DNA of 64,000 nucleotides from an uncultured virus (IMG/VR IMGVR_UViG_3300050132_000502). Its lineage: Duplodnaviria; Heunggongvirae; Uroviricota; Caudoviricetes. The translations under genes were made by a program, and so were the position numbers. Below are positions 3,710 through 21,876 of this stretch, piece by piece; the first letter of the stretch is position 1; each line of letters opens with the position of its first letter. Under the pieces are notes generated by a model, which did no database searches, had not been told where the DNA came from, and worked only from the letters and a program-made list of their open reading frames with translations. The stretch lies in IMG/VR virus record IMGVR_UViG_3300050132_000502, one strand, 5' to 3'.

Positions 3710-4225
3710 ATGGTCAAGCGCCAGCCCAAAGGCACACCAGTCGGAGGTCAGTTCGCCGAAGGACGCAAGCCCGAAGGCAACGACCTCACTACCTCCTCCG
3801 TCAACCCCGGATTCGGCTCGCGCTACGGCGGCGGCGAGCACTACCTCACCGACGAGGGAGTCACCGTCACCATGTGGCGCAAGGGTCAGAAAGTCCGCTT
3901 CTATGACAACGAGGGGAACCAAGTTGGACCTGAGCAGTCCAACGTGGCTCCCGCTGTGGCGTACATCCACGCCAATGGCTGGCAATCGGAACTCGACTAC
4001 ACGGTCGTCAAGGCTCGCGAAGTGAAGAAGGGCGAGTACATCCTCCTGCACGGGACTATCTGCGAGGTCATGGACGAAGCGGAGATCGAGGCCGAGGAAG
4101 ACATCTTCGGCCAAAAACTCGACCGGCTTCGCCTTCGTCGCACGGACACTGACGAGGTAGGAACCATGCCCTTCGGCCCTCAAGGGATCGTGCGCTCACT
4201 GCCCTCCATGACCCGTACCAACTAA
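3710..4225 (+). CDS. Leader-tagged protein 1; C-terminal SH3-like barrel
   Basis: MVKRQPKGTPVGGQF; GGAGG RBS; AREVKKGEYILL. Confidence 0.85.
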   Translation: MVKRQPKGTPVGGQFAEGRKPEGNDLTTSSVNPGFGSRYGGGEHYLTDEGVTVTMWRKGQKVRFYDNEGNQVGPEQSNVAPAVAYIHANGWQSELDYTVVKAREVKKGEYILLHGTICEVMDEAEIEAEEDIFGQKLDRLRLRRTDTDEVGTMPFGPQGIVRSLPSMTRTN

Positions 4226-4268
4226 GCGACCTGTCGCACCCATAGTGAAGGATGAGACGGAGGACCGT

Positions 4269-5072
4269 ATGACCAATCGACAGCCGAAGGGCACACCCGT
4301 GGGTGGACAGTTCTCTGAAGGACGCAAGCCGGACGGCAGCGACTTAGTGGACGACCGCGACATTGCCACGCGGGACTACATGAACTCGCAGAGGGGGAAA
4401 CAGTTGCCCGCCCGCGATTACTCCCGTGAGGCTATCGACGCGCACAAGGACGCGATTCTCGACGCAGAGCAGAATGTGGAGTCAACCATCGGCTCCTACG
4501 CCCCGGACGCGCTTTTCAACAGCACGACCCGCGAACTTCACGACAACATGCAAACCATCGTTGACAACCAGAAAGAGATCATCTACGAACTCGAATCGCA
4601 ACTTCGCGCCATCCGCGAACAGCCGAGTCCGCGTGTCTACATTTCTCCCGACGGAAACTGGGGTGGGGCCGAAGGTCTACTTCTCTTGAGTGACGCCGAC
4701 GTCGAGAAGGTAGGCGACCTGAGCGAACTGTACGAGGAGTACGGGGACAACATGATCGACGGGGTGCGCGAGCGTCTCGAACCAAAGCCCGAGTTGGTGC
4801 TCTCCTACAACGACTGGCACGACGTCGCCGAAGCAGTGGGCAATCTCACCGACGCGTGGAATACGACTCAAAACTTCTCGCCAGAGATGGATACCGCCAT
4901 GAATCGTCTGTACTTCTCATATGACACGCCTCACGACATGGTGGTCAAGTCGATTGTGGACATTCAGAACGCATGGCGAGATGTCGATTGGGGTGATGAC
5001 CCGGACGCGGTGAAGATCGACAAACTGGTGGACTCACTCGGAGACTTCCTCACCACCAAGGAGCCGTCATGA
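4269..5072 (+). CDS. Leader-tagged protein 2, acidic helical cargo
   Basis: ATG 4269 after GGAGG; leader present. Confidence 0.85.
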   Translation: MTNRQPKGTPVGGQFSEGRKPDGSDLVDDRDIATRDYMNSQRGKQLPARDYSREAIDAHKDAILDAEQNVESTIGSYAPDALFNSTTRELHDNMQTIVDNQKEIIYELESQLRAIREQPSPRVYISPDGNWGGAEGLLLLSDADVEKVGDLSELYEEYGDNMIDGVRERLEPKPELVLSYNDWHDVAEAVGNLTDAWNTTQNFSPEMDTAMNRLYFSYDTPHDMVVKSIVDIQNAWRDVDWGDDPDAVKIDKLVDSLGDFLTTKEPS

Positions 5073-5758
5073 CCAACCGCCAACCCAAGGGCACACCCGT
5101 CGGAGGTCAGTTCTCAGAAGGACGTAAGCCCGAAGGCGGAGACCTCTACGACGAGGTAAACGACAGTGTTGAGGTCGAGGAGTTCGAGGGTAACCTCACC
5201 GCATCCTACGAGGGGTACGTCTTCACCATCTCACCGCCGGACCCCGAGGCGCATCGCGCTCATTGGACCGCAGAGTTTCGCGCCGACGAAAGTTCCGTCG
5301 AGCAGTACGCGACCAAGGGGGAGTTCGCTTCTTTCGAAGAGGCCACCGACCTGTTCAAGGAATGGCCCGCAGTCGTGAAGTCGATGACACACGCCAATGA
5401 CGGATTGAAGGCCAGCGCCGGAGACCTCGAACTCACGGAACGACTCAATGATGTCCATATCCTGTGGCAGGAATTCGACGACAACGAGCAACTCTACGAC
5501 GGAGAGTTTGAGCAAATCTATGCCGTGTTAGATGAGGCTACTCGACGACTCGACGGCGACCCGAACGATCCGACATCTACCAACGCGAAGAACCTCGAAC
5601 TCTCTGACAAAGTACACAACGCACACATTTTGATTCTGAACTTCGACAAGGACGGCACAGCGATCAGCCGAGATGACTTCGACTACATCACTGAGGCCAT
5701 TGAGGAAGCCCGAGAGACGCTGGGGGCTGGTGGTCCTCACGGGGCCGTCGCCGAGTAA
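5069..5758 (+). CDS. Leader-tagged protein 3, acidic, with internal helical repeat
   Basis: Leader; DLELTERLNDVHIL / NLELSDKVHNAHIL. Confidence 0.85.
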   Translation: MTNRQPKGTPVGGQFSEGRKPEGGDLYDEVNDSVEVEEFEGNLTASYEGYVFTISPPDPEAHRAHWTAEFRADESSVEQYATKGEFASFEEATDLFKEWPAVVKSMTHANDGLKASAGDLELTERLNDVHILWQEFDDNEQLYDGEFEQIYAVLDEATRRLDGDPNDPTSTNAKNLELSDKVHNAHILILNFDKDGTAISRDDFDYITEAIEEARETLGAGGPHGAVAE

Positions 5759-5760
5759 CG

Positions 5761-6474
5761 ATGAACCGGCAACCTAAGGGCTCGCCGGTCGGTGGTCAGT
5801 TCGCGCAAGGTCGCAAACCTGACGGACCAGAACTCGACTTCGAGGATGACGAGTTTGAGATCACCACTCTTGAGCATGACGGTCTTCCTGCGGCGACGTT
5901 CTCGCACGTAGTCCACATCGGATCGCTCGACGCGGACGAGAAGCGGGGGTGGTCGCTCGAAGGCGATGGTCTTTCCGTGTCAACGGAACCCGAGGCGTGG
6001 GAAGAGATCGCTGGTCTCGGAGGCAATCAGTGGTGGACGCTCACCAAGAGCAACAATGTCTTTCTGGATGCGCACGAACTCTCCGACGAGCAGCGTGACG
6101 TCATCAACAATTGGGGTGTTGAACGCGGCTATCTGGTCAAGCAGGACGGCTGGCGTATCGAGTGGTTCGACGACGAGATGGATGACACCATGAGCACTGT
6201 CCTCGACACCGAAGAAGAAGCGCGGGAGGAACTCGACACAATGGAGGTCGATCAAGAGCCGGTCCTCGTCGAGCAACTCGTCGCTGGTCCGAACTTTCCC
6301 GATGCGGCGGGAGCAAGCAACGCGGATCAGGTCATTTTGTCCGTATGGGCTGACGAAATGTCCGACTTCGATGGCGTGTGGTGGAATGACGACCTCGCGC
6401 CCGAGCATCTCAGTGCTCCCCGAGCCGTCATTTTCAAGAGCAGACTGGCGGAGTGGGGTCGCACCCATAACTAG
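5761..6474 (+). CDS. Leader-tagged protein 4; possible enzymatic (ART-like?) cargo
   Basis: Leader; HIGSL..GLSVS..FDGVWW..SAPRAVIF. Confidence 0.8.
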   Translation: MNRQPKGSPVGGQFAQGRKPDGPELDFEDDEFEITTLEHDGLPAATFSHVVHIGSLDADEKRGWSLEGDGLSVSTEPEAWEEIAGLGGNQWWTLTKSNNVFLDAHELSDEQRDVINNWGVERGYLVKQDGWRIEWFDDEMDDTMSTVLDTEEEAREELDTMEVDQEPVLVEQLVAGPNFPDAAGASNADQVILSVWADEMSDFDGVWWNDDLAPEHLSAPRAVIFKSRLAEWGRTHN

Positions 6475-6478
6475 AGAT

Positions 6479-7594
6479 ATGACTAAGCGCCAGCCCAAGG
6501 GCACTCCCGTAGGTGGACAGTTCGCCGAAGATCGCAAACCAGATGGTGCCGACCTGGTGAGACTTCCTGACGGTCGCGAGTTCCCCAGTGACTATGAAGA
6601 TGAGTTACGTGGTGAGACAGCGGCTCACGAACGTTCTGAGCCGAACGAGCACTCAATGCCGTCTGCTCTGGCCGGAAATGTCTCAAACGTGCAGGTGGGC
6701 TCACGAACTCCGTGGGGAACTGCCGACTACGTGAACCACATCGCACCAGGCATCGTCTCGGTCGCCACGCCGGGACACGGCGGAGTCAAACTCTCGCCCG
6801 AGCGCAACAAGAAGGTGCCCGTACCTTTGCGCACGAAGTCGGGCTGGTACGAAGAGGACTGCGAAGCGTACATCCCCATGATGGTCCACGCGGGTGACAT
6901 GAAGCGAACGGGCGAGTCCACCGAAGACGCATTCAAGCGATCCGAACTCGGCGTCATGAACTGGTTCCCCGAGGGATACGAGGAGGCTTACTCGGTGGAG
7001 TTGCCCGTCGGCGCGTCACTCATGAAGGACGAAAAGACCTGGCTGACGACACACGCTCTCGACGAGATCGCGATCTCCGCCATTGGGACGGGTGACGGAA
7101 TGGTCAAGGTCACGGTCTGCGTAGGTGGTCGCGCCAAGTACGGACACGATGGAGTATCCGAGCGCGAGATTCTCGTTCCTAAAGAGGAGTACGACAGCCC
7201 TGATTTCCGTCACCCCATCGGTAAGCACAGCGGGTCGTTCGTGGTGGATTCTCGACAGAACTACGAGGACGTAACTCCACCGCCGAAGGCCCCGAACCCT
7301 CCGGCCCCGCGCTATCGCGAGATCAATTTAGGGTTAGTAACGAACGCTCAACGTGAGAGAGCCCAACGCGACCTGGACAAGAGATATCGCTTCAGTAACG
7401 GCAGTGTCCAATCAGTGCGTGAGGTCATCGAGAGTGGTGGCATCGCCAGCAAGTCGTCAATGGAGAACAACGGTCGACGCACCTACTACCTACGACGAGC
7501 GATTGAGGCCGAGGGAGAACCGGGACAGGACACCTTCAACGCTCTGGAGGTTTCCAAGGCTCTATGGGACGCGGTCGTCGCGCCAGCGAATTAG
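6479..7594 (+). CDS. Leader-tagged protein 5; DUF7007-like domain
   Basis: Leader; RTPWG...TPGHGGVKLS...GWYEEDCE. Confidence 0.8.
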   Translation: MTKRQPKGTPVGGQFAEDRKPDGADLVRLPDGREFPSDYEDELRGETAAHERSEPNEHSMPSALAGNVSNVQVGSRTPWGTADYVNHIAPGIVSVATPGHGGVKLSPERNKKVPVPLRTKSGWYEEDCEAYIPMMVHAGDMKRTGESTEDAFKRSELGVMNWFPEGYEEAYSVELPVGASLMKDEKTWLTTHALDEIAISAIGTGDGMVKVTVCVGGRAKYGHDGVSEREILVPKEEYDSPDFRHPIGKHSGSFVVDSRQNYEDVTPPPKAPNPPAPRYREINLGLVTNAQRERAQRDLDKRYRFSNGSVQSVREVIESGGIASKSSMENNGRRTYYLRRAIEAEGEPGQDTFNALEVSKALWDAVVAPAN

Positions 7595-7617
7595 TTTTCG
7601 CACCCATAACTAGAGGT

Positions 7618-7860
7618 ATGACTAAGCGACAGCCAAAGGGCACACCAGTGGGCGGGCAGTTCGCCGAAGGCCGCAAGCCCGAGGGTGCAGAACTGACTAC
7701 CTCTCCCGATGAAAAGACGACCACCGTCAAGTGCTCAGACTGTCAAACGGAAATCGATCCACTTGACGTGTTCCCCGAGGGGCGTTGTCTCAACTGTCAT
7801 GCAGCCGTGACGCCGATGCCCACCGCCGAAGAAGTTCGACGAGCATGGGGGGTTCGATGA
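7618..7860 (+). CDS. Leader-tagged protein 6; small Zn finger
   Basis: Leader; CSDC...CLNC. Confidence 0.85.
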   Translation: MTKRQPKGTPVGGQFAEGRKPEGAELTTSPDEKTTTVKCSDCQTEIDPLDVFPEGRCLNCHAAVTPMPTAEEVRRAWGVR

Positions 7861-8405
7861 CCACACGTCAGCCCAAGGGCACCCCCGTCGGTGGACAGTT
7901 CGCAGAAGGACGCAAGCCCGAAGGGGTCGTGTTAGCGCCGGTTTCACCGCTGTTCAATAAGGCCACCGTCGTCGATCACCAACGTCAGGTCAAGATACTC
8001 GAAGCGGAGATCGAAGACCTCTATCAGGACGCCTTCGTCAACGACACGAAGCCCGACAGTAGCGATCTACTTGCTTTGAAGAACGACTTGATTCATCAGC
8101 AGCACGAGATCATCCGCAAGCAGGCCAAGGAACTCGCAGACCTCCAGAGAGATGCTGGTGACTTTCAACTGCGTGGCATCATTCGTGCCAACGTTCGCGA
8201 CCGTCTATCCAACGTCGTTGATCTTGGCGATGATGATGCCCGTATCCGCGAGTTCTACGCTCAGATTGACGAACTTATGGAGCACCACTTCGCTAGGTTC
8301 GCCCCTGAGGAGAATGATGCGCTAGACGGCGTTGCGGCATCGGAGACGAACTTCTTCATGAAGCGGCTCGACCTCGACACGATGTCACTGAAAAAGGATG
8401 CGTAA
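7857..8405 (+). CDS. Leader-tagged protein 7; coiled-coil cargo
   Basis: ATG 7857 (ATGA overlap); leader. Confidence 0.85.
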   Translation: MTTRQPKGTPVGGQFAEGRKPEGVVLAPVSPLFNKATVVDHQRQVKILEAEIEDLYQDAFVNDTKPDSSDLLALKNDLIHQQHEIIRKQAKELADLQRDAGDFQLRGIIRANVRDRLSNVVDLGDDDARIREFYAQIDELMEHHFARFAPEENDALDGVAASETNFFMKRLDLDTMSLKKDA

Positions 8406-9259
8406 TGACCAATCGACAGCCCAAGGGCTCACCCGTAGGTGGACAGTTCGCAGAAGGACGCAAGCCCGAAGGCGGAGACCTTTCCGTCACCGGGGAGAAC
8501 GATGCGAACATGGAACTTGCCGAGCGACTGAACCGACTCGACTGCATGATGCAAGACCTCGAAGAGTTCGGAGCATCCGTTCTCGATGGGGAGATGTCCT
8601 TCATCCACGCCACTCTCACGGATGCTCGTACCGCCCTCGCCGAGCCTGGTGCCACCTTCGAAGGCAGGTACAAGGACACGTTGCCCGACGTGAATCAAGA
8701 AGATGGCGTCTTCACTCTTGGCGATCACACCTATGAGTTCGAAAAGACGGGACCAGAGAACGACATCACGGAGTACACACTCACCAACGCCGAGGGTGGC
8801 GGAGGATGGCGTTTCGGCTACGACCGCCTGACCCGTCGCGTCACGGCGCATGGCGTCGCTCCAGTTCGCCCCTCGGCGGAGTGGCGTGACAAAGGTGAGG
8901 CGGACATCCGCACCGTGGCTCGCTTGTTCGAACCAGACGCGAGACTGATTCAACTCGATGGCGAGACATATCTCATCGGCGGAAATCCGTGGCCCCTCAG
9001 CCCCTCACACCTGCAAGGAATCGCTACCGGCGAGATGATGCTGAACAGTGGCAAGACCGAGCATGACCTTCGCGCCTACGTGTCCCAGCAGCGCAGCGAC
9101 ACGGCCCGAAGTGAGACCGAGCGTCCTGACATGGCGAAGTCGTTCGCGGAGACGCGTAGTTACATCGACGGAATTGAGATCGCCATCAACCTCGGCGAGG
9201 AAGCGGCGAAAGCCAACACCGTGGGTGCAATGGACGCACGCTTCAAGGAGAAGTCATGA
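8405..9259 (+). CDS. Leader-tagged protein 8; multi-module cargo
   Basis: Leader; TAATG overlap. Confidence 0.85.
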   Translation: MTNRQPKGSPVGGQFAEGRKPEGGDLSVTGENDANMELAERLNRLDCMMQDLEEFGASVLDGEMSFIHATLTDARTALAEPGATFEGRYKDTLPDVNQEDGVFTLGDHTYEFEKTGPENDITEYTLTNAEGGGGWRFGYDRLTRRVTAHGVAPVRPSAEWRDKGEADIRTVARLFEPDARLIQLDGETYLIGGNPWPLSPSHLQGIATGEMMLNSGKTEHDLRAYVSQQRSDTARSETERPDMAKSFAETRSYIDGIEIAINLGEEAAKANTVGAMDARFKEKS

Positions 9260-9750
9260 CCAATCGACAGCCCAAGGGCACACCCGTTGGTGGACAGTTC
9301 GCAGAAGGACGCAAGCCCGAGGGTGCTGATCTAGCATTCGTTAATCCTGACTTCAGTGTCAGGAATGAAGGAGCGAGCGCAGTGGTCTTAACTCCCGAGC
9401 AAGAAGAGGTAGCCGCTGCCTACAAGGTCGCGGCGCTCTGGTCGACCAGTGGTGACGACGACGAGCCGTTAGACGCCGAATACGGGATCGACCAGATCAG
9501 CGAAGAATCCAGTGAGGAGATCGCCAAGGACGTCGTCGAGTTTTGGGAGCGAGCGAAGGCCGAAGGTCTCACCGAGCATTGGACACCGGGGCAGTTCGGC
9601 CACGACTTCTATCTGACGCGGGCGGGGCACGGAGCCGGATTTTGGGATCGAGGATTCGGCTACGCGGGCGGGCGTCTCACCGAGATGGCCAAGTCCTACA
9701 AGGAAAAGACCCCTATCGTCGGGGACGACGGTTCAATCTATTTCGAGTAA
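9256..9750 (+). CDS. Leader-tagged protein 9; phage-type GHDFxLTRxGHGxGFWDR domain
   Basis: Leader; GHDFYLTRAGHGAGFWDRG. Confidence 0.85.
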   Translation: MTNRQPKGTPVGGQFAEGRKPEGADLAFVNPDFSVRNEGASAVVLTPEQEEVAAAYKVAALWSTSGDDDEPLDAEYGIDQISEESSEEIAKDVVEFWERAKAEGLTEHWTPGQFGHDFYLTRAGHGAGFWDRGFGYAGGRLTEMAKSYKEKTPIVGDDGSIYFE

Positions 9751-9792
9751 TCCTCTGTCGCACCCATAGTGAAGGATGAGACGGAGGATCGT

Positions 9793-10302
9793 ATGACCAA
9801 TCGCCAACCCAAGGGAACGCCAGTGGGTGGACAGTTCGCGGAAGGTCGCAAGCCCGAGGGTGGCGACTTGGAAGTTTCAAGCACATCCGTCGAGCCTCTC
9901 AAGAAGAAAATCTCGTTCGGAAAAGTTGACGGCTACGGCAACGGTCGCAAGAGTTGCTCCGTCGATGTTCAGGTCTCCATCTCGGAGAACAACGAAGGTC
10001 AAGCACGGTTGAGCATCCAGGGCAACGTATGGAACGCAGGCCACACTGACATCATCAGTGGCGGGCAGAACGTTGACGAAATGTTGCGACTCGTCGATGA
10101 CCCCAAGATGCGCGAGATCGCCGAAGTGTGGAAACGTTGGCATCTCAACGACATGCGTGTCGGGTGTGAACACCAGCGGACGCAGCCGAAGGGCTCTGTC
10201 GAGGTTGGACAGGAATGTCCCGAATGCAGTTATCGCTACGGTTCGGCGTGGCTCTACGAGGAACTCCCACCGGAGGTCATCGAGCAAGTGAGGTCGTGGT
10301 GA
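9793..10302 (+). CDS. Leader-tagged protein 10; WxxWHLNDM/Zn-ribbon domain
   Basis: Leader; WKRWHLNDMRVGCEHQ...CPECSYRYGSAW. Confidence 0.85.
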   Translation: MTNRQPKGTPVGGQFAEGRKPEGGDLEVSSTSVEPLKKKISFGKVDGYGNGRKSCSVDVQVSISENNEGQARLSIQGNVWNAGHTDIISGGQNVDEMLRLVDDPKMREIAEVWKRWHLNDMRVGCEHQRTQPKGSVEVGQECPECSYRYGSAWLYEELPPEVIEQVRSW

Positions 10303-11102
10303 CAAATCGCCAGCCCAAGGGCACACCCGTGGGAGGTCAGTTCTCCGAAGGCCGTAAGCCCGAGGGCGACGACCTGACCAACATCGAAGTTGATGGAGTT
10401 ACGGTTGCCGGATATCGCCACGTGGACATCGACGGCAATACCGAGACTCTCAACGCGGGCAACCAGTGCATCTCGTGTGGCCGGAGCAGTGGCCTCGTCA
10501 ATCGCGTCTCGTCAGAGCGTTCGAGTGAGGACGGCATCCGTGTCGCGGGCTATATGTGCGCGGAGTGCGACGGCTGTGAGGACGGAACAACCCTTCGTTG
10601 GTGCAGCGAATGTGGGGACTTCACCGCTGGAGATGAAGAAGGCGTCTGTCACGAGTGTGGCAGTGAGCAAGACGGCTCTGTTCCCACCGATGGCGTTGAC
10701 GAAGACTCCTACCTTGCACGTTGTACCCAGTGCACGGGTGAGACGACCTTCGACTTCGAGGTGTTCGCACACCGACTGAAGGGCGACAACTTGATGACCA
10801 AAGTTGGGACGACCTACGGAGAAGTCAAGATTGGCGAATGGGTGCCAGCGGTGTTCCCCGAGACCTTGATGCAGATTTTGAGGATAGAGCACGAAGGTCC
10901 AGAGGACTACGAAGGGTGGAGTGCACAGAGCCTCGCTCAGATTCTCAAAGAGCGTGATCTCACGACGGCCAAGGTAACGGACGTGCTCGACATCTTCAAT
11001 GACGGCAGTGGTGACGTCGCGTCGGTGGCCTTCGATCCAAAACGCGGCATCAACCAAGTCATGCTGGAGATCAACGGAACGTTGGAGAGGATCACGCAAT
11101 GA
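10299..11102 (+). CDS. Leader-tagged protein 11; multiple CxxC Zn ribbons
   Basis: GTG 10299; leader; CISC, CAEC, CSEC, CHEC, CTQC. Confidence 0.85.
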   Translation: MTNRQPKGTPVGGQFSEGRKPEGDDLTNIEVDGVTVAGYRHVDIDGNTETLNAGNQCISCGRSSGLVNRVSSERSSEDGIRVAGYMCAECDGCEDGTTLRWCSECGDFTAGDEEGVCHECGSEQDGSVPTDGVDEDSYLARCTQCTGETTFDFEVFAHRLKGDNLMTKVGTTYGEVKIGEWVPAVFPETLMQILRIEHEGPEDYEGWSAQSLAQILKERDLTTAKVTDVLDIFNDGSGDVASVAFDPKRGINQVMLEINGTLERITQ

Positions 11103-13285: not shown

Positions 13286-13295
13286 GAGGAGAAGG

Positions 13296-13667: not shown

Positions 13668-13705
13668 CCGTCTGCACCCATAGTGAAGGGTGAGACGGAG
13701 GACGC

Positions 13706-14533: not shown

Positions 14534-14796
14534 TGACGACTCGGAATCCGAAAGGAACCCCGGTTGGCGGTCGATTCGCACAAGAGCGCAAGCCCGATGG
14601 TGTCGACTTCGTAGGAGTTGTCGAGGACACCGAGGACGAGGAATACAAAGAACGGTACTGCGGCTACTGCAAAGTCGAAGGTCACAACTTCGCGCATTGT
14701 TCGAGACGCGACATCGACGGCATCGCGATTGGCGTTGACAGCGACGACTTTCACGAAGACATGCTCACCTATAGAGATCGAGACGAGAATGACTAA
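14533..14796 (+). CDS. Leader-tagged protein 18; CCHC zinc knuckle
   Basis: GTG 14533; TRNPKGTPVGGRF; CGYCKVEGHNFAHC = CX2CX4HX4C. Confidence 0.85.
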   Translation: MTTRNPKGTPVGGRFAQERKPDGVDFVGVVEDTEDEEYKERYCGYCKVEGHNFAHCSRRDIDGIAIGVDSDDFHEDMLTYRDRDEND

Positions 14797-15583
14797 CCGT
14801 CAGCCCAAGGGCACACCCACCGGAGGACAGTTCGCAGAAGGGCGCAAGCCTGAGGGCAGTGATCTCCCGGCGATCACCCGATCCAAGGGCACGGCTGTCG
14901 GCGGCTTCGTCGTTGGTGGAGGATATCGAGGCATCACCGACGACCTTGACAGTGTGGTCGAAGCAACTGCCGAGTACATGACCACCGAGTTCAATATGCC
15001 GGTCGAGATTCGTTTCAACTCTGATCGTCGCCGTGGCGGTGCGTGGCTCAACTTCGATGGGAACACCTCAGCGGTCGGTATCAGCGCAAACCAGCACGAG
15101 ACGAAAAAAGAGGCTAAAGAAGGTCGGTACTACAAGTCGTTCGGCGACGACAAGGCTGGGGCTCAGGAATACCTCGCTAGTTGCGACGGAGAGGTACACC
15201 TCGACGTCTACGTCGTTGGAGAGTTCTTGCGCGACCCCAGTGAAGCCGAGGAGACCGCCAACGGCTCTCGTCGATTGATGACACCGATTGGTAACGTCGG
15301 CGACGCTCTTACCTTCGTGCGCGAGCACACCATCGTTGGCGACTTTGCCGAGATAGAGCGTCGTACCCTCATTCGCCTAGAGAGCATCAAAAAGCGTGAT
15401 GCCCTGAAGGAGAAGGCGAACAAAGACTACGAACTAGCGGTGGGCATCATTGTCAAGAACGGTGAACACACTCGTGAGCAAGCGATCAAAGAAATACAGC
15501 CCGCGTACGCCGCTCAGTACAGAGAGTTCGAGCAGGAACTCTTCGACGACTACTGGGCTCAAATCGCGAAAGGATCATCATGA
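14789..15583 (+). CDS. Leader-tagged protein 19
   Basis: ATG 14789; leader. Confidence 0.85.
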   Translation: MTNRQPKGTPTGGQFAEGRKPEGSDLPAITRSKGTAVGGFVVGGGYRGITDDLDSVVEATAEYMTTEFNMPVEIRFNSDRRRGGAWLNFDGNTSAVGISANQHETKKEAKEGRYYKSFGDDKAGAQEYLASCDGEVHLDVYVVGEFLRDPSEAEETANGSRRLMTPIGNVGDALTFVREHTIVGDFAEIERRTLIRLESIKKRDALKEKANKDYELAVGIIVKNGEHTREQAIKEIQPAYAAQYREFEQELFDDYWAQIAKGSS

Positions 15584-15987
15584 ACCGTGAACCCAAGGGG
15601 ACGCCGACTGGCGGACAGTTCGCACCAGGACGCAAGCCCGAAGGCGGAGACCTCCCGGTCGAGCCGATTATGACGCCGCACGGTCAACTCGTCATCAACG
15701 CCTTTCGTGCTGACAGTGGACAAGTGGTCGCCCTCATGGGTATTTTGACACCGTGCTGCAACGCCTCCGGCAAGGGGCTCTACGACGAAGATGCTGACCG
15801 TGGATACGTGGGATGTCGTCGTTGTTTCAATCCGGTCGACGACATTCACGGCTCGTGTTTCAGCGATGAAGAGTTCAAGGACGACACTCTGACGCAAGCG
15901 ATTGCCGACTATTGGTTTGATGGCGACAGTGAGAAAGTCGTGGGGCTACGCACGGTGATCGCCGAACGTATGAAGGACCCCTCGTAG
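15580..15987 (+). CDS. Leader-tagged protein 20; Cys-rich
   Basis: Leader; LTPCCNASGKG...GCRRC. Confidence 0.85.
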   Translation: MNREPKGTPTGGQFAPGRKPEGGDLPVEPIMTPHGQLVINAFRADSGQVVALMGILTPCCNASGKGLYDEDADRGYVGCRRCFNPVDDIHGSCFSDEEFKDDTLTQAIADYWFDGDSEKVVGLRTVIAERMKDPS

Positions 15988-16030
15988 TCGCACCCATAAC
16001 TAGGGGTAGAACGTTCGCAAGGAGACATCA

Positions 16031-16261
16031 ATGAGGAAGCGTCAACCCAAGGGCACTCCCGTCGGCGGACAGTTCGCTGAAGACCGCAAACCAGAAGGCG
16101 CTGACCTGTCCGAGCCGAAGTCGTATCTGCCTTCTGAATTGGAGCCGCGTCCTGACTCCAAGTTGACGAACTTCATGCTGAAGCCCCGGTCACGATCTTT
16201 TGCGTTGGACTGGGCAGACCGGCGTCGGAAGCGGGAAGAAAAGAAGACCACGAAGTCATGA
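16031..16261 (+). CDS. Leader-tagged microprotein 21, basic tail
   Basis: AAGGAG RBS; leader plus ~50 aa. Confidence 0.8.
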   Translation: MRKRQPKGTPVGGQFAEDRKPEGADLSEPKSYLPSELEPRPDSKLTNFMLKPRSRSFALDWADRRRKREEKKTTKS

Positions 16262-17082
16262 CCAATCGTCAACCCAAAGGAACGCCAGTCGGCGGGCAAT
16301 TCTCTGAAGATCGCAAGCCCGAAGGCAACGAACTATCGGAACCCTCACTCGCCAGTTGGAGACCAGTTCTTCGCAACGGAACCAGAGTGGTCGACTGGGT
16401 TCCCTCTGAACTGACCGAAGACCAATTGATGGTGCAGGTCTGGTTCCGTGGTGACGAAGATGAAGACGACGTCAGTGACGCAGTGATGGGCGGACTCAGT
16501 CCTCGCGAAATCGCCAACACCATGTTTCAGATGGGAGACGAAGCGGTCACGCCGAGGGACTTCTACGACTTCTTCGCGGACGACGACTACGTCAAGATTG
16601 CCTTTCGACCCGACGCGGACCTCCAGACAATGATTCAGAAGATCAACGAACTCGGAGATAGTGACCGTCGATTCAATTTCTCACCCCACGACGTAGATCG
16701 CTACCGTCAGATCATCAACGACGAATTCGCCACACCAGATGGAAGTCCCGTGGCCTACTTGCCGAACGAGAAGGGCGCTGAACTGCTCTCCCGTTCGTCA
16801 CTGGAAACGATGGAGGAGCACAGCACCGATGAGGGCACTTACTGGAGAGCAAAACTCAAGGTCGAGGACTTCGTGCTCAACGTTCGCAACGATGGATTAA
16901 GCGGACCGAACTCGTACGTCTTCATGGGCATTCCTGCTGCCAGTCAGACGGACATGCTCACCTCACTCAACGCCGAAGTGCTCAACGGCTTCCCCGGACT
17001 CGAACGAAGTGACGGCGGCAAAGACACTGAAGCACTCGATGTTCTCTGTACGCTTATCCAAGTGATCGAAGAGAACTCATGA
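16258..17082 (+). CDS. Leader-tagged protein 22; C-terminal domain shared with protein 17
   Basis: Leader; YLPNEKG...VRNDG..GPN...GFPGL. Confidence 0.85.
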   Translation: MTNRQPKGTPVGGQFSEDRKPEGNELSEPSLASWRPVLRNGTRVVDWVPSELTEDQLMVQVWFRGDEDEDDVSDAVMGGLSPREIANTMFQMGDEAVTPRDFYDFFADDDYVKIAFRPDADLQTMIQKINELGDSDRRFNFSPHDVDRYRQIINDEFATPDGSPVAYLPNEKGAELLSRSSLETMEEHSTDEGTYWRAKLKVEDFVLNVRNDGLSGPNSYVFMGIPAASQTDMLTSLNAEVLNGFPGLERSDGGKDTEALDVLCTLIQVIEENS

Positions 17083-17645
17083 GTCAGTCGCGAGTTCCCA
17101 AGGGCGCCCCCAAGACGGGTGGGCAGTTCGCGGCGGGCCGTAAGCCTGAAGGCGACGACCTCGTTCTTCCTCAACGTGGTCAGGCCGTAACGACCGCCTC
17201 GTGGACACAAGAGAAACTCATTGAGCGCAAGGTCTTCTTCGCCAAGCGAGTCGCCGCACAGAACAAAGAGATGGCTGGCTACGCCTATGACTGGTACGCG
17301 ATGGAGAGGGTCATGGTCGCCTACGGAGGAGTGGCTGCGGTGCCACCGATGGAACCCGAAGACAACATCTTTGAATTAGTGGACAACGGAACATTCAGTA
17401 GCGATCCCGCAATCATGAGAGAAGGAGACCCTAGCCAATGTCATGCCAACACCGCCCAGTTGTGGACCGACGGAGAGATCGACGAAATCTGTACCGGGTA
17501 CGCACTCAGCGGAGACGGCCTGTGGAGACAACACAGTTGGGGACGGAAGAACGGCAAAACGGTCGAGACGACTGAGCCACGTCTGGCGTACTACGGCTAC
17601 GTCGTTGAAGACCCGAAAGACTGGTCCGAAAAGCAACTTCGCTAG
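17079..17645 (+). CDS. Leader-tagged protein 23; putative Cys-His (papain/transglutaminase-like) enzyme
   Basis: MSQSRVPKGAPKTGGQF; SQCHAN...GYAL..DGLWRQHSW. Confidence 0.8.
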   Translation: MSQSRVPKGAPKTGGQFAAGRKPEGDDLVLPQRGQAVTTASWTQEKLIERKVFFAKRVAAQNKEMAGYAYDWYAMERVMVAYGGVAAVPPMEPEDNIFELVDNGTFSSDPAIMREGDPSQCHANTAQLWTDGEIDEICTGYALSGDGLWRQHSWGRKNGKTVETTEPRLAYYGYVVEDPKDWSEKQLR

Positions 17646-17677
17646 TCGCACCCATAGTGAAGGAGAGAAGGAGTCAC

Positions 17678-18658
17678 ATGACCAATCGCCAGCCGAAGGG
17701 CACCCCCGTAGGTGGACAGTTCGCCGAAGGACGCAAGCCCGAGGGCGGGGACCTCTATGTAGACGACGGACCTCAGTACCACATCTCAATGACTGAGGGC
17801 GACATCCTGACGGGCACCAAGGTGCTCGCGGCTGATGTCGCTACCGGAGACTCGCTCTACTTAGATCAGAACGACATCGAGACTGCGAGTGACTCTGCGT
17901 ACGACGAGGACAAAGGCGAAGTCCGACTCGAACTCACTAACGGACGGATCGTCGATGTCAATGCGGACGACGTGTTCATTGTCGAAGTTGCGCGAGCGGG
18001 CAGTGGTTCCACGTTCGACTTCGGCGACGGACCGGTAGCCGCGCACCAGCATCGCTTCGGACTCGGATGGGTTGCCGACACCGCCGATGTTGCCGACACC
18101 GTGTGGGTCGATCCCGAGGCGCAAGTCAAGGACAACGCTGTGGTGAAGGGTCATGTACGAATCTTCGATCAGGCAGTCATCAGTGGCAACGCCTGGGTAG
18201 CCGACGACGCGATGGTGTGCAACCATGCAGAAATCTCGGATGACGCCAAGGTGTTCGGTCGTGCGTCAGTGAGTGGAAACGCCAAGGTGCGTAACCGGGC
18301 TCGGGTCTTCGGCAGTGCGCGAGTTCTCGACTTCGCAGAAGTACGTGGCAACGGACTCGTCTCAGGTTTCGCACGCATCTCTTCTGAAGCGAAGGTCGCA
18401 CAGAATGCCAACGTCACGGACGACGCGCACGTCACCGGCTCTGCGATCATCAGCGGACAGGCGTGGGCGAGTGGACACTCGATCATCTCCGATAGTGCCA
18501 AGGTTCATGGCGAGGCGTGGGTGTGCAACGAGTCTCGGGTGGGCGGCATGGCAGTCGTCGCGGGCACTGTCATGGTCTGTGACAAAGCGTGGGTACACGT
18601 CAACGCCGAACTCAGCGGTAGCGAGAAGATCACTGGAGATACCGAACTCCGGGGATGA
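17678..18658 (+). CDS. Leader-tagged protein 24; SH3-like module plus hexapeptide beta-helix
   Basis: ATG 17678; AHQH..GWVADTA; repeated A.V.G.A. Confidence 0.85.
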   Translation: MTNRQPKGTPVGGQFAEGRKPEGGDLYVDDGPQYHISMTEGDILTGTKVLAADVATGDSLYLDQNDIETASDSAYDEDKGEVRLELTNGRIVDVNADDVFIVEVARAGSGSTFDFGDGPVAAHQHRFGLGWVADTADVADTVWVDPEAQVKDNAVVKGHVRIFDQAVISGNAWVADDAMVCNHAEISDDAKVFGRASVSGNAKVRNRARVFGSARVLDFAEVRGNGLVSGFARISSEAKVAQNANVTDDAHVTGSAIISGQAWASGHSIISDSAKVHGEAWVCNESRVGGMAVVAGTVMVCDKAWVHVNAELSGSEKITGDTELRG

Positions 18659-18750
18659 AATTCGTTGCACACACCGGATTTTTTGAGAAACCCCAATTGT
18701 GTAGTTTTTGCACCCATAATTAGAGATAGCAAAAAGCACGAGGAGTGAGC

Positions 18751-19785
18751 ATGGCAACGAACGTAAACCGACAGCCCAAGGGCACTCCCGTCGGTGGACG
18801 GTTCGCGGAAGGACGCAAGCCCGAGGGCGGCGACCTTTTCGAGACCACCAAGCCCCAAGATCGTGAACTTCAGGACCGTCAGGCCGCACTGATCGCCGGA
18901 CTCGGCATGAAGGCCACCGTCATCGCTGCCGGAGATCGCCCACGGTTCGCTGGCGACCAGAAGAAGGTAGATCGCTGGTGGGAGCGTAAGTTCATTGCGG
19001 GTGAATACTCACCCGGCGTCTCTCCCGAGGACCGGGACTTCAAGAAGATGCCCGATGACTACACCCCGAGCATGACGCCGGGTAACGCCACCACTCATAA
19101 TCGCCGGACTCACCGTATGCACTACGCCGGTCCCGAAGTTGACATGAGAATGCCGTCGTACGCCTCGGTCAATCGTTTCGCATCGGAGAACCCCGGCGAA
19201 TCATTCGACGTCCCCGTCACCGCCGAGTACCCCGGTGGCTCCATCGAAGGATGGGTCCGCGTCGCCCGCACCGAGAACGGTACGTGGCGGGCCAAGGGCC
19301 TCGGTTTCTCTCCCGAGCAGACCGCCTACGTTGACGAGGCCGTGCTGTGCGTTCTCGAAGCACGCCGACCCTCGCGAGCACTGAGTGGCGTGGCCTCACT
19401 GGTTGAAAGTCGCCGCGAGCGTTTCGCCCGACAGGGTGTGCAGGTCCCTCAGTTGGTGACGTCGGGCTGGATAAAGAATCTCGGCTACGACTCCGCCACC
19501 GACACCATGATGATGGAGACCGAGACCGGGAAGTCCTACGGCTACAAGGTGCCACTGCGTACCTACCAGGCCGTGGCACTGGCCCACTCCCCCGGATCAG
19601 TCTTCAACCGCATCGTGAAGAAGAACGCCGAGCGGGTCGAGGTGACGAAATGCCCGAACTGCAAGCGCACGTCCGCCGTACCTGGACACAAATGTCCACC
19701 CACCATGTCCGCGCCGCGCAATGACGACGAGGTTCGTGGGGACAACACGCGCATCCGTCGCTGGGTGAGCAAGCACCGCGTCTAA
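18751..19785 (+). CDS. Leader-tagged protein 25; KTSC-like domain plus Zn finger
   Basis: NRQPKGTPVGGRF; SGWIKNLGYD...GKSYGYKVP..Y..V..A.SPGSVFN; CPNC..HKC. Confidence 0.8.
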   Translation: MATNVNRQPKGTPVGGRFAEGRKPEGGDLFETTKPQDRELQDRQAALIAGLGMKATVIAAGDRPRFAGDQKKVDRWWERKFIAGEYSPGVSPEDRDFKKMPDDYTPSMTPGNATTHNRRTHRMHYAGPEVDMRMPSYASVNRFASENPGESFDVPVTAEYPGGSIEGWVRVARTENGTWRAKGLGFSPEQTAYVDEAVLCVLEARRPSRALSGVASLVESRRERFARQGVQVPQLVTSGWIKNLGYDSATDTMMMETETGKSYGYKVPLRTYQAVALAHSPGSVFNRIVKKNAERVEVTKCPNCKRTSAVPGHKCPPTMSAPRNDDEVRGDNTRIRRWVSKHRV

Positions 19786-19787
19786 TC

Positions 19788-20024
19788 GTGAAGCGTCAAC
19801 CGAAGGGCACACCCAAGGGTGGTCAGTTCGCGGAAGGTCGCAAGCCAGACGGACCTGATTTCCCGGCTACAGGCGATCTTCATCTCGGTAGTGGCGCAGT
19901 TGTCGAGGCCACCATCCATGACACAGGTGTAGTTCGTGGTGAAGCCACTCTGTACGCGAGTCGTGGGGTCGAGCCGAAGCGGAGCCTCGCCCAAAAACTC
20001 AAGAACTCACTGCGCCGCCCGTAA
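19788..20024 (+). CDS. Leader-tagged microprotein 26
   Basis: GTG start; KRQPKGTPKGGQF. Confidence 0.75.
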   Translation: MKRQPKGTPKGGQFAEGRKPDGPDFPATGDLHLGSGAVVEATIHDTGVVRGEATLYASRGVEPKRSLAQKLKNSLRRP

Positions 20025-20081
20025 CTCCGACCGACTTATCTGATTTGCACCCATAACTAAGGGTAGGAAAGAGGAGCACCC

Positions 20082-20975
20082 ATGACCGCACGTCAGCCAA
20101 AAGGCATCCCTGTTGGAGGCCAGTTCGCCGAGAGTCGCAAGCCCGACGGTGGCGATCTCGCAACATCAGTCGATACATTGCCGCCGCCCGTCGCTTCCTC
20201 GACCAAGGGGATATGGGACATCGAGCACGCCTCGAAGCCGAAGCCAATCGACCGAGGCAACGGGATCATCTCTACCTCGTTCAATCTCTCCGGCGAGCCA
20301 TCGGCCAACACCGACATTTCGGCACGCATCGCGGCCTACGAGAAGCCGAATGATCTCGACGAGAAAATTGCGGCCGCAATTGCGAGCAACGAGCCGGTCA
20401 CTGTTCTCAGTGTGGGTGACGGGGCCTTCGGCGGATCGTTTCCTCGAATCGTCCAAGGCAAACTCTTTCGAGGACGTAGTGGCGATGTTGCCTTCTTGCC
20501 AACCGGGAAGCGTACGCAAGGCTTCAAGTTGAAGACGCCTCTCGACATCATCTCCGACAAGAAGCCCGCGTCCATCACCGAGTTGAATCGTCGCTGGTAT
20601 GAAGGAACTGGTATCCCGCCCACCGAGCCGCTCACCTTAGAGATGCTCCGTGGCGCAAGCGAAGAGAATCCCATCGCCCTGATCTACACGCACCCCGGAT
20701 TCGATGGTGAGCCCACACCGGGCTGTGTCTGGTACATCGACTACTACGAAGAGGACGAAGACCAGGAGCCAGGAACCGGCATCGCGGGTGGCTACATGTG
20801 GGCTCCCGACGACCACGGACTCACCTCCGAGCACGGGTCGACCTACGCCAAGGAGATACTCACCAAGGGAGCCGTGGTGCCACTGAAGCCGGGGGTCAAC
20901 TTCAAGACGATGACAGAGTTGCCGGAAGATCGCGCAGGTGCGTACAAGCAGTTGTTCGGAGGGGCCGATGACTAA
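20082..20975 (+). CDS. Leader-tagged protein 27
   Basis: GAGGAG RBS; MTARQPKGIPVGGQF; C-terminal SEHGS motif. Confidence 0.85.
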   Translation: MTARQPKGIPVGGQFAESRKPDGGDLATSVDTLPPPVASSTKGIWDIEHASKPKPIDRGNGIISTSFNLSGEPSANTDISARIAAYEKPNDLDEKIAAAIASNEPVTVLSVGDGAFGGSFPRIVQGKLFRGRSGDVAFLPTGKRTQGFKLKTPLDIISDKKPASITELNRRWYEGTGIPPTEPLTLEMLRGASEENPIALIYTHPGFDGEPTPGCVWYIDYYEEDEDQEPGTGIAGGYMWAPDDHGLTSEHGSTYAKEILTKGAVVPLKPGVNFKTMTELPEDRAGAYKQLFGGADD

Positions 20976-21876
20976 TCGTCAGCCGAGGGGCATCCCAGTT
21001 GGAGGTCAATTCGCCGAAGGTCGCAACCCTGAGGGCGGAGACCTCGCGTCCGATGGCTTGCTCGCTACTTACAGCCAGATGAGGCAAGTCTTCGAGAGTT
21101 CCGTGGTGGAGATAGCCGACGGCGACGGTTCACAACTCAACGAGACCGACCACGACCGACTCATGGTCGCGGCTCGCAACTTCTTTGACAACCAGACGTT
21201 TCACCCACCCACCCGAAGTGGCATGAGAGAGATCGCCGAAAAGTTCGTGTATGAAGACCCCGCCGCGAAACTGATTCTTAGTCACGGCGCAACACCTCCA
21301 CCGACACCACCAGAAGACCTGAAGGCGACGTTGGAGGCCATGTGGCAAGAGGCCGAGTCTGAGTACAACGAAGCGTCCAAAGACAGCGCCGATGACGAAG
21401 AGAACGTCGGATACTGGGACGGGATGAAAGCGGGAATCGGCAAGGCGCAGGTCGCTCTCGCTGACTCTGGCTGGACTCCACCGACGACCTACCCCGAGAA
21501 CGAAGACGAACTTATGGTCATCTCAATGACCGTGAACCGTCGAACCGGAGAAGTCAACGTGACCACCGATGGAAAACTCTCGGGCAACACGGGGTTCCAG
21601 TACGCCTACGATCAACTCACCGAAGCGGCCAGCGACATCGTGTCGAGCAATCCTGAAGCGTTCATCACCGATCCTCTGCCTCGCACGATCACACTGAAGC
21701 ACGGCACCGTATCCGCGAGCAACTACGACAACGAGCACTTCTTCCTCTCCGAAGAGGCCGTCAAGGACGCCGAGTTCCTTCAGGACGATGGTGAGTACGT
21801 CTACCTGAAACTCAAGGACGGTCAAGTCGTCCTTCTCGACCCCATCGACGTTGAGGTCTCTGACCCACCGTTTTAG
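20968..21876 (+). CDS. Leader-tagged protein 28; multi-module acidic cargo
   Basis: ATG 20968; MTNRQPRGIPVGGQF. Confidence 0.85.
   Translation: MTNRQPRGIPVGGQFAEGRNPEGGDLASDGLLATYSQMRQVFESSVVEIADGDGSQLNETDHDRLMVAARNFFDNQTFHPPTRSGMREIAEKFVYEDPAAKLILSHGATPPPTPPEDLKATLEAMWQEAESEYNEASKDSADDEENVGYWDGMKAGIGKAQVALADSGWTPPTTYPENEDELMVISMTVNRRTGEVNVTTDGKLSGNTGFQYAYDQLTEAASDIVSSNPEAFITDPLPRTITLKHGTVSASNYDNEHFFLSEEAVKDAEFLQDDGEYVYLKLKDGQVVLLDPIDVEVSDPPF

Follow-up and report, generated by a model that had tools for sequence, protein, structure and literature searches.

The window analysed here is a stretch of 64,000 nucleotides from an uncultured member of the Caudoviricetes (IMG/VR record IMGVR_UViG_3300050132_000502), an element that resembles the megaplasmids of Micrococcales, large actinobacterial elements of conjugative type. 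It carries 31 genes that begin with variants of a single peptide tag of approximately 25 amino acids, 28 of them in a contiguous array. The tag is translated and is under selection at the level of the peptide. As a leader it recurs in related plasmids, its core is common to effectors encoded in phage head modules and, in the window, a box upstream of tagged genes is shared with an operon resembling a type IV secretion system (T4SS). We tentatively read the tag as a portable leader for proteins that are delivered or deployed together with mobile DNA, here by way of the conjugation apparatus, a reading to which we give somewhat less than an even chance.

All 31 genes start with a form of the consensus MTNRQPKGTPVGGQFAEGRKPEGxDL, in which the initial T is optional. 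A six-frame scan with the pattern P.G.P.{1,2}GG[QR]F returned 28 matches, 27 on the plus strand between 3725 and 20983 and one on the minus strand at 46775. A looser scan for GG[QR]F added tagged starts at 11129 (+) and 36326 (-), together with two unrelated matches at 33991 and 39768, and the gene starting at 46159 on the minus strand carries the variant MSQPRVPKGTPKAGGQYAENRRPDGGEL, with GGQY. In the gene models the array comprises 28 genes, all on the plus strand, between 3710 and 21876, and three further tagged genes lie on the minus strand at 35721-36365, 45236-46159 and 46242-46790. An earlier note on this DNA had counted 31 tagged genes with 28 arrayed, and scans and gene models bear out both figures, including the third additional gene at 46159. 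Intergenic distances in the array range from -8 to +92 nt, with an overlap of 1 to 8 nt with the end of the previous gene at 15 of 27 junctions. In an alignment of 30 tags, R4, G8, P10, G12, G13, F15, R19 and P21 are invariant and at least 90% of the tags retain P6, Q14, K20, G23 and L26; likeness among the proteins stops at approximately residue 26. No Pfam or NCBIfam model matched the tag. The consensus has neither a hydrophobic run, such as the h-region of a Sec signal, nor the RR of a twin-arginine (Tat) signal, in keeping with the earlier view that it belongs to neither type.

Invariant arginines of the tag are encoded by CGC, CGA, CGG and CGT (8, 8, 3 and 10 times, respectively) and invariant glycines by three or four codon forms. 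Synonymous sites are essentially random, which indicates that selection acts on the amino acid sequence and excludes a repeat maintained as DNA or RNA; conservation at the DNA level, as in an integron-like array, was not found across the tag. The notion that the tag is a recombination site, an attC-like element or a regulatory RNA that happens to be translated can therefore hardly be entertained. A segment of approximately 75 nt does recur at gene starts in 31 copies, but its third codon positions vary freely under fixed amino acids, which contradicts such a repeat, and the truly conserved DNA element is an upstream box, GCACCCATA, distinct from the tag.

A Shine-Dalgarno-like motif was present 3-11 nt upstream of 20 of the 31 tagged starts, compared with 21 of 206 internal in-frame ATG or GTG codons, and the next in-frame ATG usually lies 30-190 codons downstream. 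Translation from a start beyond the tag, which would have undone the earlier interpretation, is answered in the negative by these motifs together with the overlapping junctions.

Each of the 31 proteins consists of one leader and one cargo region, with 48-344 amino acids following the tag. The cargos are unrelated to one another, as the earlier note had held in placing the end of similarity near the DL of the consensus: BLASTP similarity was detected in two of 435 cargo pairs, the beta-helix proteins encoded at 12372 and 17678 and the proteins encoded at 13706 and 16258. An isoelectric point below 5.7 was calculated for 26 of 30 cargos. DUF7007, encoded at 6479-7594 (E 3.6e-30), was the sole cargo match in the window above the Pfam cut-off; below it were KTSC in 18751-19785 and a bactofilin/hexapeptide beta-helix in 12372-13055 and 17678-18658.

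Homologues of the DUF7007 cargo number 192, and those with a named source all come from Actinobacteria. Among the best 120 of the 192, 88 possess the long form of the leader, 14 a clear short form, F(D/N)ExxHPRxxxxG(Q/K/R)F..K.N..P...L, and 18 were unclassified. A degenerate G-x-[FYW]...L is still visible in most of the 18; approximately six look truly leaderless, as judged by eye, one of which (P0200) begins at the domain. For the beta-helix cargo, alignments with relatives from phages and plasmids begin no earlier than residue 110. A few cargo homologues elsewhere lack the tag, and the leader is separable from its cargo. Codon use, cargo comparison and the forms taken by DUF7007 homologues together agree with the earlier description of a portable module, acting at the peptide level, on unrelated proteins. 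In an AlphaFold model of the DUF7007 protein (gene 5 of the array; alignment of 66 sequences), residues 65-371 had a predicted local distance difference test (pLDDT) score above 90, and residues 1-60 scored 41-60 and formed no secondary structure despite the conserved leader columns. The leader is accordingly predicted, on the strength of this model, to be intrinsically disordered.

A profile of the leader searched against 1.84 billion cluster representatives gave 140 matches at E up to 1e-3. In the majority (128), proteins of 44-467 amino acids (median 204), the leader falls within the first 60 residues; another ten, of 558-2335 amino acids, have two to five internal copies. Of the remaining two, one appears spurious and the other, P0071, bears the leader at both of its ends and could represent two neighbouring genes that were read as one. 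Two small proteins, P0062 and P0064, have two tandem N-terminal copies of the leader. The family grades from a short HPR..GxF form to the RQPKGTPVGGQF form, and its general form is a basic/Pro start (RxPxG or HPR), G-x-[F/W/Y], approximately ten variable residues and a leucine. The short HPRxxxGxF form is recurrent in phage and plasmid proteins.

Pfam analysis of the ten large proteins identified Phage_Mu_F in six and domains of toxin or enzyme type (ART, Gln_amidase, HNH, zeta toxin, NUDIX, GNAT and DUF3626) in eight; P0109 and P0127 had no Pfam match. In these proteins a motif ..Q(A/P)RxPKGTPxGGQ(W/F).. sits before the downstream domains, as in P0066, where motifs at residues 852 and 1103 precede an ART domain (927-1068) and a deamidase (1190-1291), respectively. 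The repeating unit is therefore a leader plus a domain, present once per protein in plasmids and up to five times in phage proteins. Window cargos compared with the ten large proteins by BLASTP gave no matches.

Patterns specific to the lineage of the 30 tags marked 29 stretches in genome contigs, of which two were confirmed, and 31 in viral contigs, of which none were; they were replaced by exact scans with the core pattern. The latter located 15 loci with the W variant and 11 with the F variant in viral contigs, representing 23 open reading frames (ORFs). Among their products are a topoisomerase IB, in which the leader is close to the N-terminus, a 338-residue zeta toxin with the leader approximately 16 residues in, DUF3626 proteins, NUDIX+ART giants and a fusion of zeta toxin to MuF. 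Several lie among head genes: locus L109 has the order TerL, portal-MuF fusion, leader-topoisomerase IB; L118 the order leader-zeta toxin, MuF-like minor head protein, head maturation protease; L122 the order MuF, ParA-like gene, NUDIX/ART polyvalent protein; and in L128 a head decoration protein follows the MuF fusion. Passages of PMC5512222 and PMC3482391 describe MuF fusions as effectors carried in the head and injected along with the DNA. That the same core stands before MuF polyvalent effector domains and in head-module effectors supports the earlier proposal that the tag is linked to DNA-delivered proteins. Seven phage loci (L103, L104, L110, L112, L113, L114 and L117) encode proteins of 136-170 amino acids with a conserved N-terminal segment of approximately 40 residues followed by ..LERRYRPDQPRAPKGTPEGGQWIDD..; this family had no Pfam or PHROG match.

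The occurrence of one leader copy per polyvalent domain suits a different explanation, namely that the leader is a processing or turnover signal read by a protease or adaptor encoded by the element, for example the papain-like or head maturation proteases of phages, or by its host, with delivery, if any, specified elsewhere. Such a signal could release domains from polyproteins, or act as a removable pro-peptide or a shared degron that times invasion-phase proteins. A papain-fold Gln_amidase/Tox-PL1 domain is present in three of the ten large proteins, the leader-zeta toxin locus L118 adjoins a head maturation protease gene, passages of PMC3482391 list papain-like releasing peptidases for MuF systems, and the predicted disorder of the leader would make it accessible. 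Yet the leader is also found at the very N-terminus, both in single-domain proteins and in polyvalent ones (P0109, P0127 and P0137), where there is nothing upstream to free; no protease was found to be common to all tag-bearing plasmids, DUF2201 and its MoxR partner being missing from pS16; and the GG pair is not universal, short forms having a single G. We regard this explanation as doubtful.

The closest homologues of the VirB4-like ATPase of the window, at 47-51% identity, belong to plasmids of 375-608 kb from Arthrobacter, Pseudarthrobacter, Paenarthrobacter and Curtobacterium, followed at approximately 27-28% by megaplasmids of Bifidobacterium of the pMP7017 type. With the tag alone as query, tblastn matched only Micrococcales plasmids, each in many places. 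A tag profile gave 49 matches in pACHL01 (E up to 1) and 30 in the zg-Y1110 plasmid (E up to 0.01); at a hidden Markov model (HMM) score of at least 15 the counts were 31 in the window, 41 in pACHL01, 26 in zg-Y1110, one in the Curtobacterium plasmid pS16 and none in pMP7017, every counted tag lying at the N-terminus of an ORF. The low count for pS16 arises because its tags are degenerate, as in its DUF7007 and KTSC-like orthologues; a looser pattern recovered from pS16 at least 11 N-terminal tags carrying one inserted residue, and still none from pMP7017. Across relatives the core RQPxG(I/V)PxGGQFA is kept and the second half is specific to the lineage (ATxHxEPxxxL as against EGRKPEGxDL). Tags are rare: in a sample of 401 genomes from the order they occurred in two, including the centre genome.

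Tagged cargos of the relatives include an NAD-dependent DNA ligase, Fic, two DUF2958 proteins, DUF7007 and a CCA/poly(A)-polymerase with an HD domain (both plasmids), with sub-threshold matches to a ParB-like nuclease (ParBc_2), LPD29 and sigma70 region 2; 57 of the 68 relatives' cargos scanned had no Pfam match. Judged by these domain assignments, the cargo types would fit functions of an invasion phase. The largest array of pACHL01 (200-228 kb) lies between parA and a gene for a 1416-residue FtsK/SpoIIIE protein, which is conserved in zg-Y1110 (62%), pS16 (41%) and pMP7017 (27%), and a tagged gene of pACHL01 likewise lies inside the T4SS-like operon. Genome G386 has five tags, with a VirB4 homologue (48%) among the tagged genes and a homologue of the FtsK-like protein directly upstream of one of them; a co-fold of a fragment of this coupling protein (residues 76-661) with the neighbouring leader scored 0.00, which counts neither way. 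The FtsK/SpoIIIE homologues of the plasmid family are approximately 1300-2100 residues long with an acidic stretch, and several possess a C-terminal HAD-type domain (PF18143 or DxDG); inteins are present in several coupling-protein homologues elsewhere. In a Brevibacterium genome, G001 (L009:5905-6969 and 7492-8628), a tagged gene adjoins a tyrosine-integrase-like gene where an integrated element borders a gene resembling gyrase/topoisomerase IV subunit A; no VirB4 homologue was found in this genome with the window protein as query.

The nine-nucleotide box GCACCCATA occurs 13 times in the window, compared with 0.15 copies expected, and none of 100 shuffled sequences reached 13. Copies are always co-oriented with the downstream gene. 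Ten, on the plus strand, divide the array into sub-operons (numbering tagged genes 1 to 31): 3677-3685 before gene 1, 4236-4244 before gene 2, 6461-6469 before gene 5, 7600-7608 before gene 6, 9760-9768 before gene 10, 13674-13682 before gene 17, 15990-15998 before gene 21, 17648-17656 before gene 24, 18710-18718 before gene 25 and 20047-20055 before gene 27. On the minus strand, 46817-46825 and 46187-46195 precede the tagged genes 31 and 30 at 46.8 and 46.2 kb, and 44301-44309, the sole copy not in front of a tagged gene, heads the T4SS-like operon. None of the other approximately 45 genes of the window is preceded by the box, and allowing one mismatch added a single site, inside dnaE. The conserved block around the box extends to approximately 20 nt (tcGCACCCATAayTArGGgT) without a conserved -35-like sequence. 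The box looks promoter-like, and in this window it suggests co-regulation of the tagged genes with the transfer operon.

In the relatives a sequence that looks homologous to this box, CCG[CT]ACAC, is found plasmid-wide, with 224 copies in pACHL01 and 222 in zg-Y1110 compared with approximately 45 expected, before tagged and untagged genes alike. A tag-specific promoter as a trait of the family was consequently dropped. Copies of CCG[CT]ACAC typically end approximately 9 nt before start codons, a spacing suggestive of a promoter that is specific to the element and yields mRNAs with no leader or a very short one. The protein encoded at 45236-46159, itself tagged, may be sigma-like and, if so, could read the element's box: its zg-Y1110 orthologue matches sigma70 region 2 below the cut-off (E 3.1e-4), the window protein has no Pfam match, and its profile found nothing among PDB sequences.

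A start codon approximately 9 nt from a plasmid-wide box in the relatives, tightly packed arrays with stop/start overlaps, and long identical runs of DNA between some pairs of tags are what would be expected if the leader were an expression or cassette module, supplying any captured ORF with a working start (RBS context and a harmless, well-translated N-terminus) and an in-frame joint for the swapping of cassettes by recombination, with a peptide that binds nothing. This is improbable, since synonymous sites are randomised around eight invariant residues, and the peptide is kept across lineages in which no DNA similarity remains and at internal positions of polyvalent proteins, which need no translation start. 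The scattered, box-driven tagged genes of the relatives are also compatible with a leader that docks its proteins, inside the cell, on a single hub, for example a chaperone, a condensate or a complex for replication or transcription of the element, where element proteins would be concentrated with no transfer between cells. The form of the leader is that of a short linear motif, and the cargos include a ligase, a CCA-adding enzyme and a possibly sigma-like protein, which act on the element's own DNA or RNA. Docking of this kind would leave the link to MuF and phage head morphogenesis unexplained and would require 30-40 different clients to compete for one site, and comparison of presence and absence among the plasmids yielded no candidate hub; we consider it unlikely.

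The T4SS-like operon that shares the box extends on the minus strand from approximately 44.3 kb to 31.7 kb and has the appearance of a core of Gram-positive type. It encodes a 100-residue protein with two transmembrane-like segments (43966-44268), putatively VirB3-like by its position; a 1057-residue polytopic membrane protein (40779-43952) with nine transmembrane-like segments and a weak TrbL/VirB6 match below the Pfam cut-off (E 0.0018), conserved in relatives; an 899-residue NlpC/P60 hydrolase with an N-terminal transmembrane-like segment (38076-40775); a 350-residue protein with a single transmembrane segment (34204-35256), whose gene adjoins that for VirB4 in three plasmid lineages; and the VirB4-like AAA_10 ATPase of 842 residues (31672-34200). 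The tagged gene at 35721-36365 lies inside this operon and two tagged genes lie at its head. No FtsK-like coupling protein was found in the 64 kb of the window; of a T4SS with its coupling protein, the window holds the VirB4-like and VirB6-like proteins and the hydrolase, and the coupling protein was seen in relatives only.

Genes for a capsid, a terminase or MuF were not found in the window. None of the families Phage_Mu_F (PF04233), Phage_capsid (PF05065) and TerL_ATPase (PF03354) occurred in four complete relatives, with control genomes positive, and tblastn searches of the window and the four plasmids with phage queries (protease, MuF, portal and TerL) were negative. When PHROGs were compared with 49 untagged ORFs of the window, the sole head or packaging match was a 'terminase' at 46834-48993, over residues 43-406, where Pfam places a LAGLIDADG/Hom_end intein within an AAA_11 helicase extein; the terminase matches cover the intein and are read as an artefact of it, and a 'primase' match likewise falls only in the intein region. 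The gene, on the minus strand, encodes a 719-residue superfamily 1 helicase with the intein just after Walker A. It is very unlikely that the leader is a packaging signal of T4 type for a particle, such as an undetected capsid-like or encapsulin-like shell, encoded outside the window. The phage motif is encoded in head modules and T4 internal proteins use an N-terminal targeting peptide, which would favour such a signal; the searches with families, tblastn and PHROGs, among which encapsulin families were not included, were negative. An element-encoded capsid, scaffold and head protease, as in T4, were not found by the three families, the tblastn queries and PHROGs. The alternative raised in the earlier note, of a particle encoded beyond the window, finds no support in four complete relatives that lack MuF, an HK97-type capsid and TerL.

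What remains of the earlier interpretation of the tag as an address is that the leader is portable, translated, disordered in the model, linked to DNA delivery and provided with a box in common with the T4SS-like operon. Under the reading of the tag as a delivery leader, it would mark a protein domain as a member of the set that a mobile element sends into a cell it has newly invaded, or deploys there. The phage leader heads each effector domain of MuF-anchored polyvalent proteins and single effectors encoded beside portal, MuF and head-protease genes, proteins that are packed and injected. On this megaplasmid-type element, in which no capsid genes were found, each effector is a separate gene with its own leader, as though a polyvalent protein had been dismantled into an operon array. 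The leader would allow the T4SS-like apparatus to export these proteins to the recipient with the DNA, probably through the FtsK-like coupling protein or an adaptor, and the cargos would then act in the recipient in establishment and counter-defence. Recognition by the transfer machine, the transfer itself and the roles of the cargos are what we infer here.

Several results weigh against delivery through the T4SS. The signals of typical T4SS substrates are C-terminal. The element shared by the tagged proteins is N-terminal, unlike the usual C-terminal or internal translocation signal, with C-terminal features covered by the cargo comparison only; an N-terminal signal for a T4SS is described from Legionella (PMC10100965). 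Phages without a T4SS use the motif too, and homology therefore does not imply a receptor specific to the T4SS. In polyvalent proteins each domain has its own copy of the leader, though one address per polypeptide should do, and such copies fit processing, regulation or chaperone binding better. The plasmid-wide distribution of the homologous box in relatives restricts the argument from co-regulation to this window. No relaxase or oriT was identified, and MOB-suite typed 16 of 16 related plasmids as non-mobilizable, so that conjugation of the plasmid family is something that we infer. The sole demonstrated case is a distant one, pMP7017, described as conjugative (PMC10832533 and PMC8313286). 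With a related VirB4 (28%) and coupling protein (27%), pMP7017 has zero tags, which shows that tags are not required for transfer as such. The cargos of the window matched no known anti-defence family in Pfam or NCBIfam, and the fold of the DUF7007 cargo could not be assigned against the PDB (best Foldseek E 0.017; best VIA-align Z 4.1). Large enzymes, for example the 701-residue ligase, could simply act in the cell that produces them. Phages without a T4SS, per-domain copies and the tagless pMP7017 together leave the rival explanations with real weight.

A broader form of the delivery hypothesis is also possible, if rather doubtful, in which the leader is independent of the machine: a disordered peptide of 15-28 residues (HPR/RxP...G-x-[F/W]...L) that licenses a domain for export with mobile DNA through either a phage head (portal/MuF) or an actinobacterial T4SS. 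The step shared by the two routes would be an unfolding-competent state, a common adaptor or binding to a DNA pilot. The array of 28 genes would then be a plug-and-play library of effectors, and the leader a tool for protein delivery between bacteria.

Among known systems, the tagged proteins belong with effectors sent together with mobile DNA, the kind that includes polyvalent proteins, head internal proteins and T4SS-translocated proteins. Other systems resemble the array in part. Anti-defence islands of plasmid leading regions, whose genes the recipient expresses from the incoming strand, are not known to have a shared peptide; they too are long co-oriented runs of small, often acidic genes beside transfer functions, and here a shared peptide is present. 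Double-glycine leaders, cleaved by ABC exporters with a C39 peptidase, have a hydrophobic or helical pattern. The tag is similarly a short GG-bearing N-terminal leader on diverse cargos, with no hydrophobic pattern and with a GG that is not universal; there was no C39 match among the Pfam-scanned ORFs of the window, a scan that did not extend to small ORFs or DNA outside it. In T4, the internal proteins and Alt share an N-terminal capsid-targeting sequence, are delivered with the DNA and in some cases act in counter-defence; the prohead scaffold recognises the targeting peptide, which the head protease cleaves. The tagged proteins are alike in having a short N-terminal peptide on unrelated proteins and differ in that the peptide has no sequence similarity to that of T4 and no head genes were found. 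Alt is mentioned in passages of PMC5512222.

F-type T4SSs (PMC8406263 and PMC11288057) are reported to translocate at least 16 plasmid proteins, including ParA, ParB, SSB and PsiB of pED208. These are likewise plasmid-encoded establishment proteins, but they have no common N-terminal tag, are not arrayed and belong to Gram-negative hosts. A close likeness is to MuF polyvalent proteins and polymorphic toxins (Iyer et al. 2017, PMC5512222; Jamet et al. 2017, PMC5576092; Zhang et al. 2012, PMC3482391), in which the same core, R-x-P-K-G-T-P-x-G-G-Q-[F/W], stands before effector domains. They are also encoded by mobile elements, deploy a battery of effectors at invasion and may overlap in cargo with the relatives (sub-threshold LPD29 and ParB-like nuclease). 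In the window, by contrast, the effectors are separate genes with one N-terminal leader each, in an array of 28, with a T4SS-like machine and neither MuF anchor nor capsid. Polyvalent proteins (PMC5512222) are marked by at least two disparate effector domains per polypeptide, which none of the 31 window proteins has, and by proximity to packaging or transfer genes, which is found here in the VirB4-like, VirB6-like and NlpC/P60 genes and the tagged gene inside their operon. Against the polyvalent repertoire (LPD families, ParB-like nuclease, ART and others), the relatives' cargos gave matches to LPD29 and ParBc_2, both below the cut-off, and to DUF2958; the window cargos gave only DUF7007 and the weak KTSC and beta-helix matches.

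Keywords for the junction motif found no mention in the available text of PMC5512222, PMC5576092 and PMC3482391, supplements being outside the scope. Literature searches, with supplements and subscription journals outside their scope, located no description of the leader motif, of the continuum from HPR..GxF to RQPKGTPVGGQF or of its use once per gene in arrays of up to 28 genes on actinobacterial megaplasmids, which agrees with the earlier statement that no such arrayed system has been characterised.

Should the leader prove to signal delivery or deployment, the proteins sent into new hosts by megaplasmids and many phages could be listed by a sequence rule, and the approximately 100 cargos, most of them without a known family, would offer a wealth of functions in counter-defence and host takeover. 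Phage polyvalent proteins and MuF toxins on the one hand and conjugative protein transfer on the other would share a modular unit of leader plus domain, arranged serially or split into operons. The choice of protein substrates by Gram-positive and actinobacterial T4SSs becomes a testable question. Even as a processing or docking motif, the leader is a widespread and strongly selected linear motif that defines a regulon-like class of genes on a poorly studied family of plasmids.

The individual tagged genes are described here from the gene models, mostly together with the tag alignment, the cargo comparison or both; genes 1 to 28 are on the plus strand. Gene 1 (3710-4225, 171 amino acids) has GGAGG 4 nt upstream. 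Genes 2 (4269-5072, 267 amino acids), 3 (5069-5758, 229) and 4 (5761-6474, 237) encode acidic proteins, and gene 5 (6479-7594, 371) the DUF7007 protein. The product of gene 6 (7618-7860, 80 amino acids) has four cysteines and is Zn-ribbon-like. Genes 7 (7857-8405, 182), 8 (8405-9259, 284), 9 (9256-9750, 164) and 10 (9793-10302, 169) are followed by gene 11 (10299-11102, 267), with a GTG start and 11 cysteines, gene 12 (11099-11716, 205), with an RQSKG variant of the tag, and gene 13 (11713-12375, 220). Gene 14 (12372-13055, 227 amino acids) has a GTG start and the weakly matching beta-helix cargo, gene 15 (13055-13285, 76) encodes six cysteines, and the product of gene 16 (13296-13667, 123) is 33% Asp and Glu. 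Gene 17 (13706-14533, 275 amino acids) is a paralogue of gene 22 (16258-17082, 274). Between them lie gene 18 (14533-14796, 87), with a GTG start and a GGRF variant, genes 19 (14789-15583, 264) and 20 (15580-15987, 135), and gene 21 (16031-16261, 76), whose cargo is basic. The tag of gene 23 (17079-17645, 188 amino acids) has a one-residue insertion. Gene 24 (17678-18658, 326) encodes the beta-helix cargo with untagged relatives on phages and plasmids, and gene 25 (18751-19785, 344), with the weak KTSC match, the tagged cargo most conserved across plasmids. The array ends with gene 26 (19788-20024, 78 amino acids, GTG start), gene 27 (20082-20975, 297) and gene 28 (20968-21876, 302). On the minus strand, gene 29 (35721-36365, 214 amino acids), within the T4SS-like operon, has a divergent tag, RRHRGTPIGGQFAEDRKP, and a tagged orthologue in pACHL01; gene 30 (45236-46159, 307), with the GGQY variant, has tagged orthologues in pACHL01 and zg-Y1110; and gene 31 (46242-46790, 182) encodes an acidic protein.

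Immediately 5' of the array, on the same strand, is a gene for an SNF2-family helicase (1256-3121). Other genes of the window encode ThyX (22947-23816, +), DnaE with PHP and Pol III alpha domains (26990-30751, +), an APH-like kinase (30808-31668, -), which adjoins VirB4, and a cpYpsA SLOG protein (55016-55579, +). Additional genes of pACHL01 include dut and those for Thg1, a SecE-like protein, signal peptidase I and Lsr2. A DUF2201 protein with a VWA domain and putative metallopeptidase (49260-50561, -), a MoxR AAA+ partner (52829-53941, -) and a 332-residue protein (21952-22950, +) are common to megaplasmids of Micrococcaceae, where their genes cluster with the intein-bearing helicase and the KTSC-like tagged gene. 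These three were considered as receptor or protease; DUF2201 and MoxR are rejected as required partners owing to their absence from the tag-bearing pS16, as is the 332-residue protein, and none of the three was found in pMP7017. At 63137-63979 on the minus strand, a gene conserved in three plasmid lineages encodes a 280-residue protein with four DUF4379 treble-clef zinc-finger repeats (E 1.6e-45) and PHROG matches to endonucleases.

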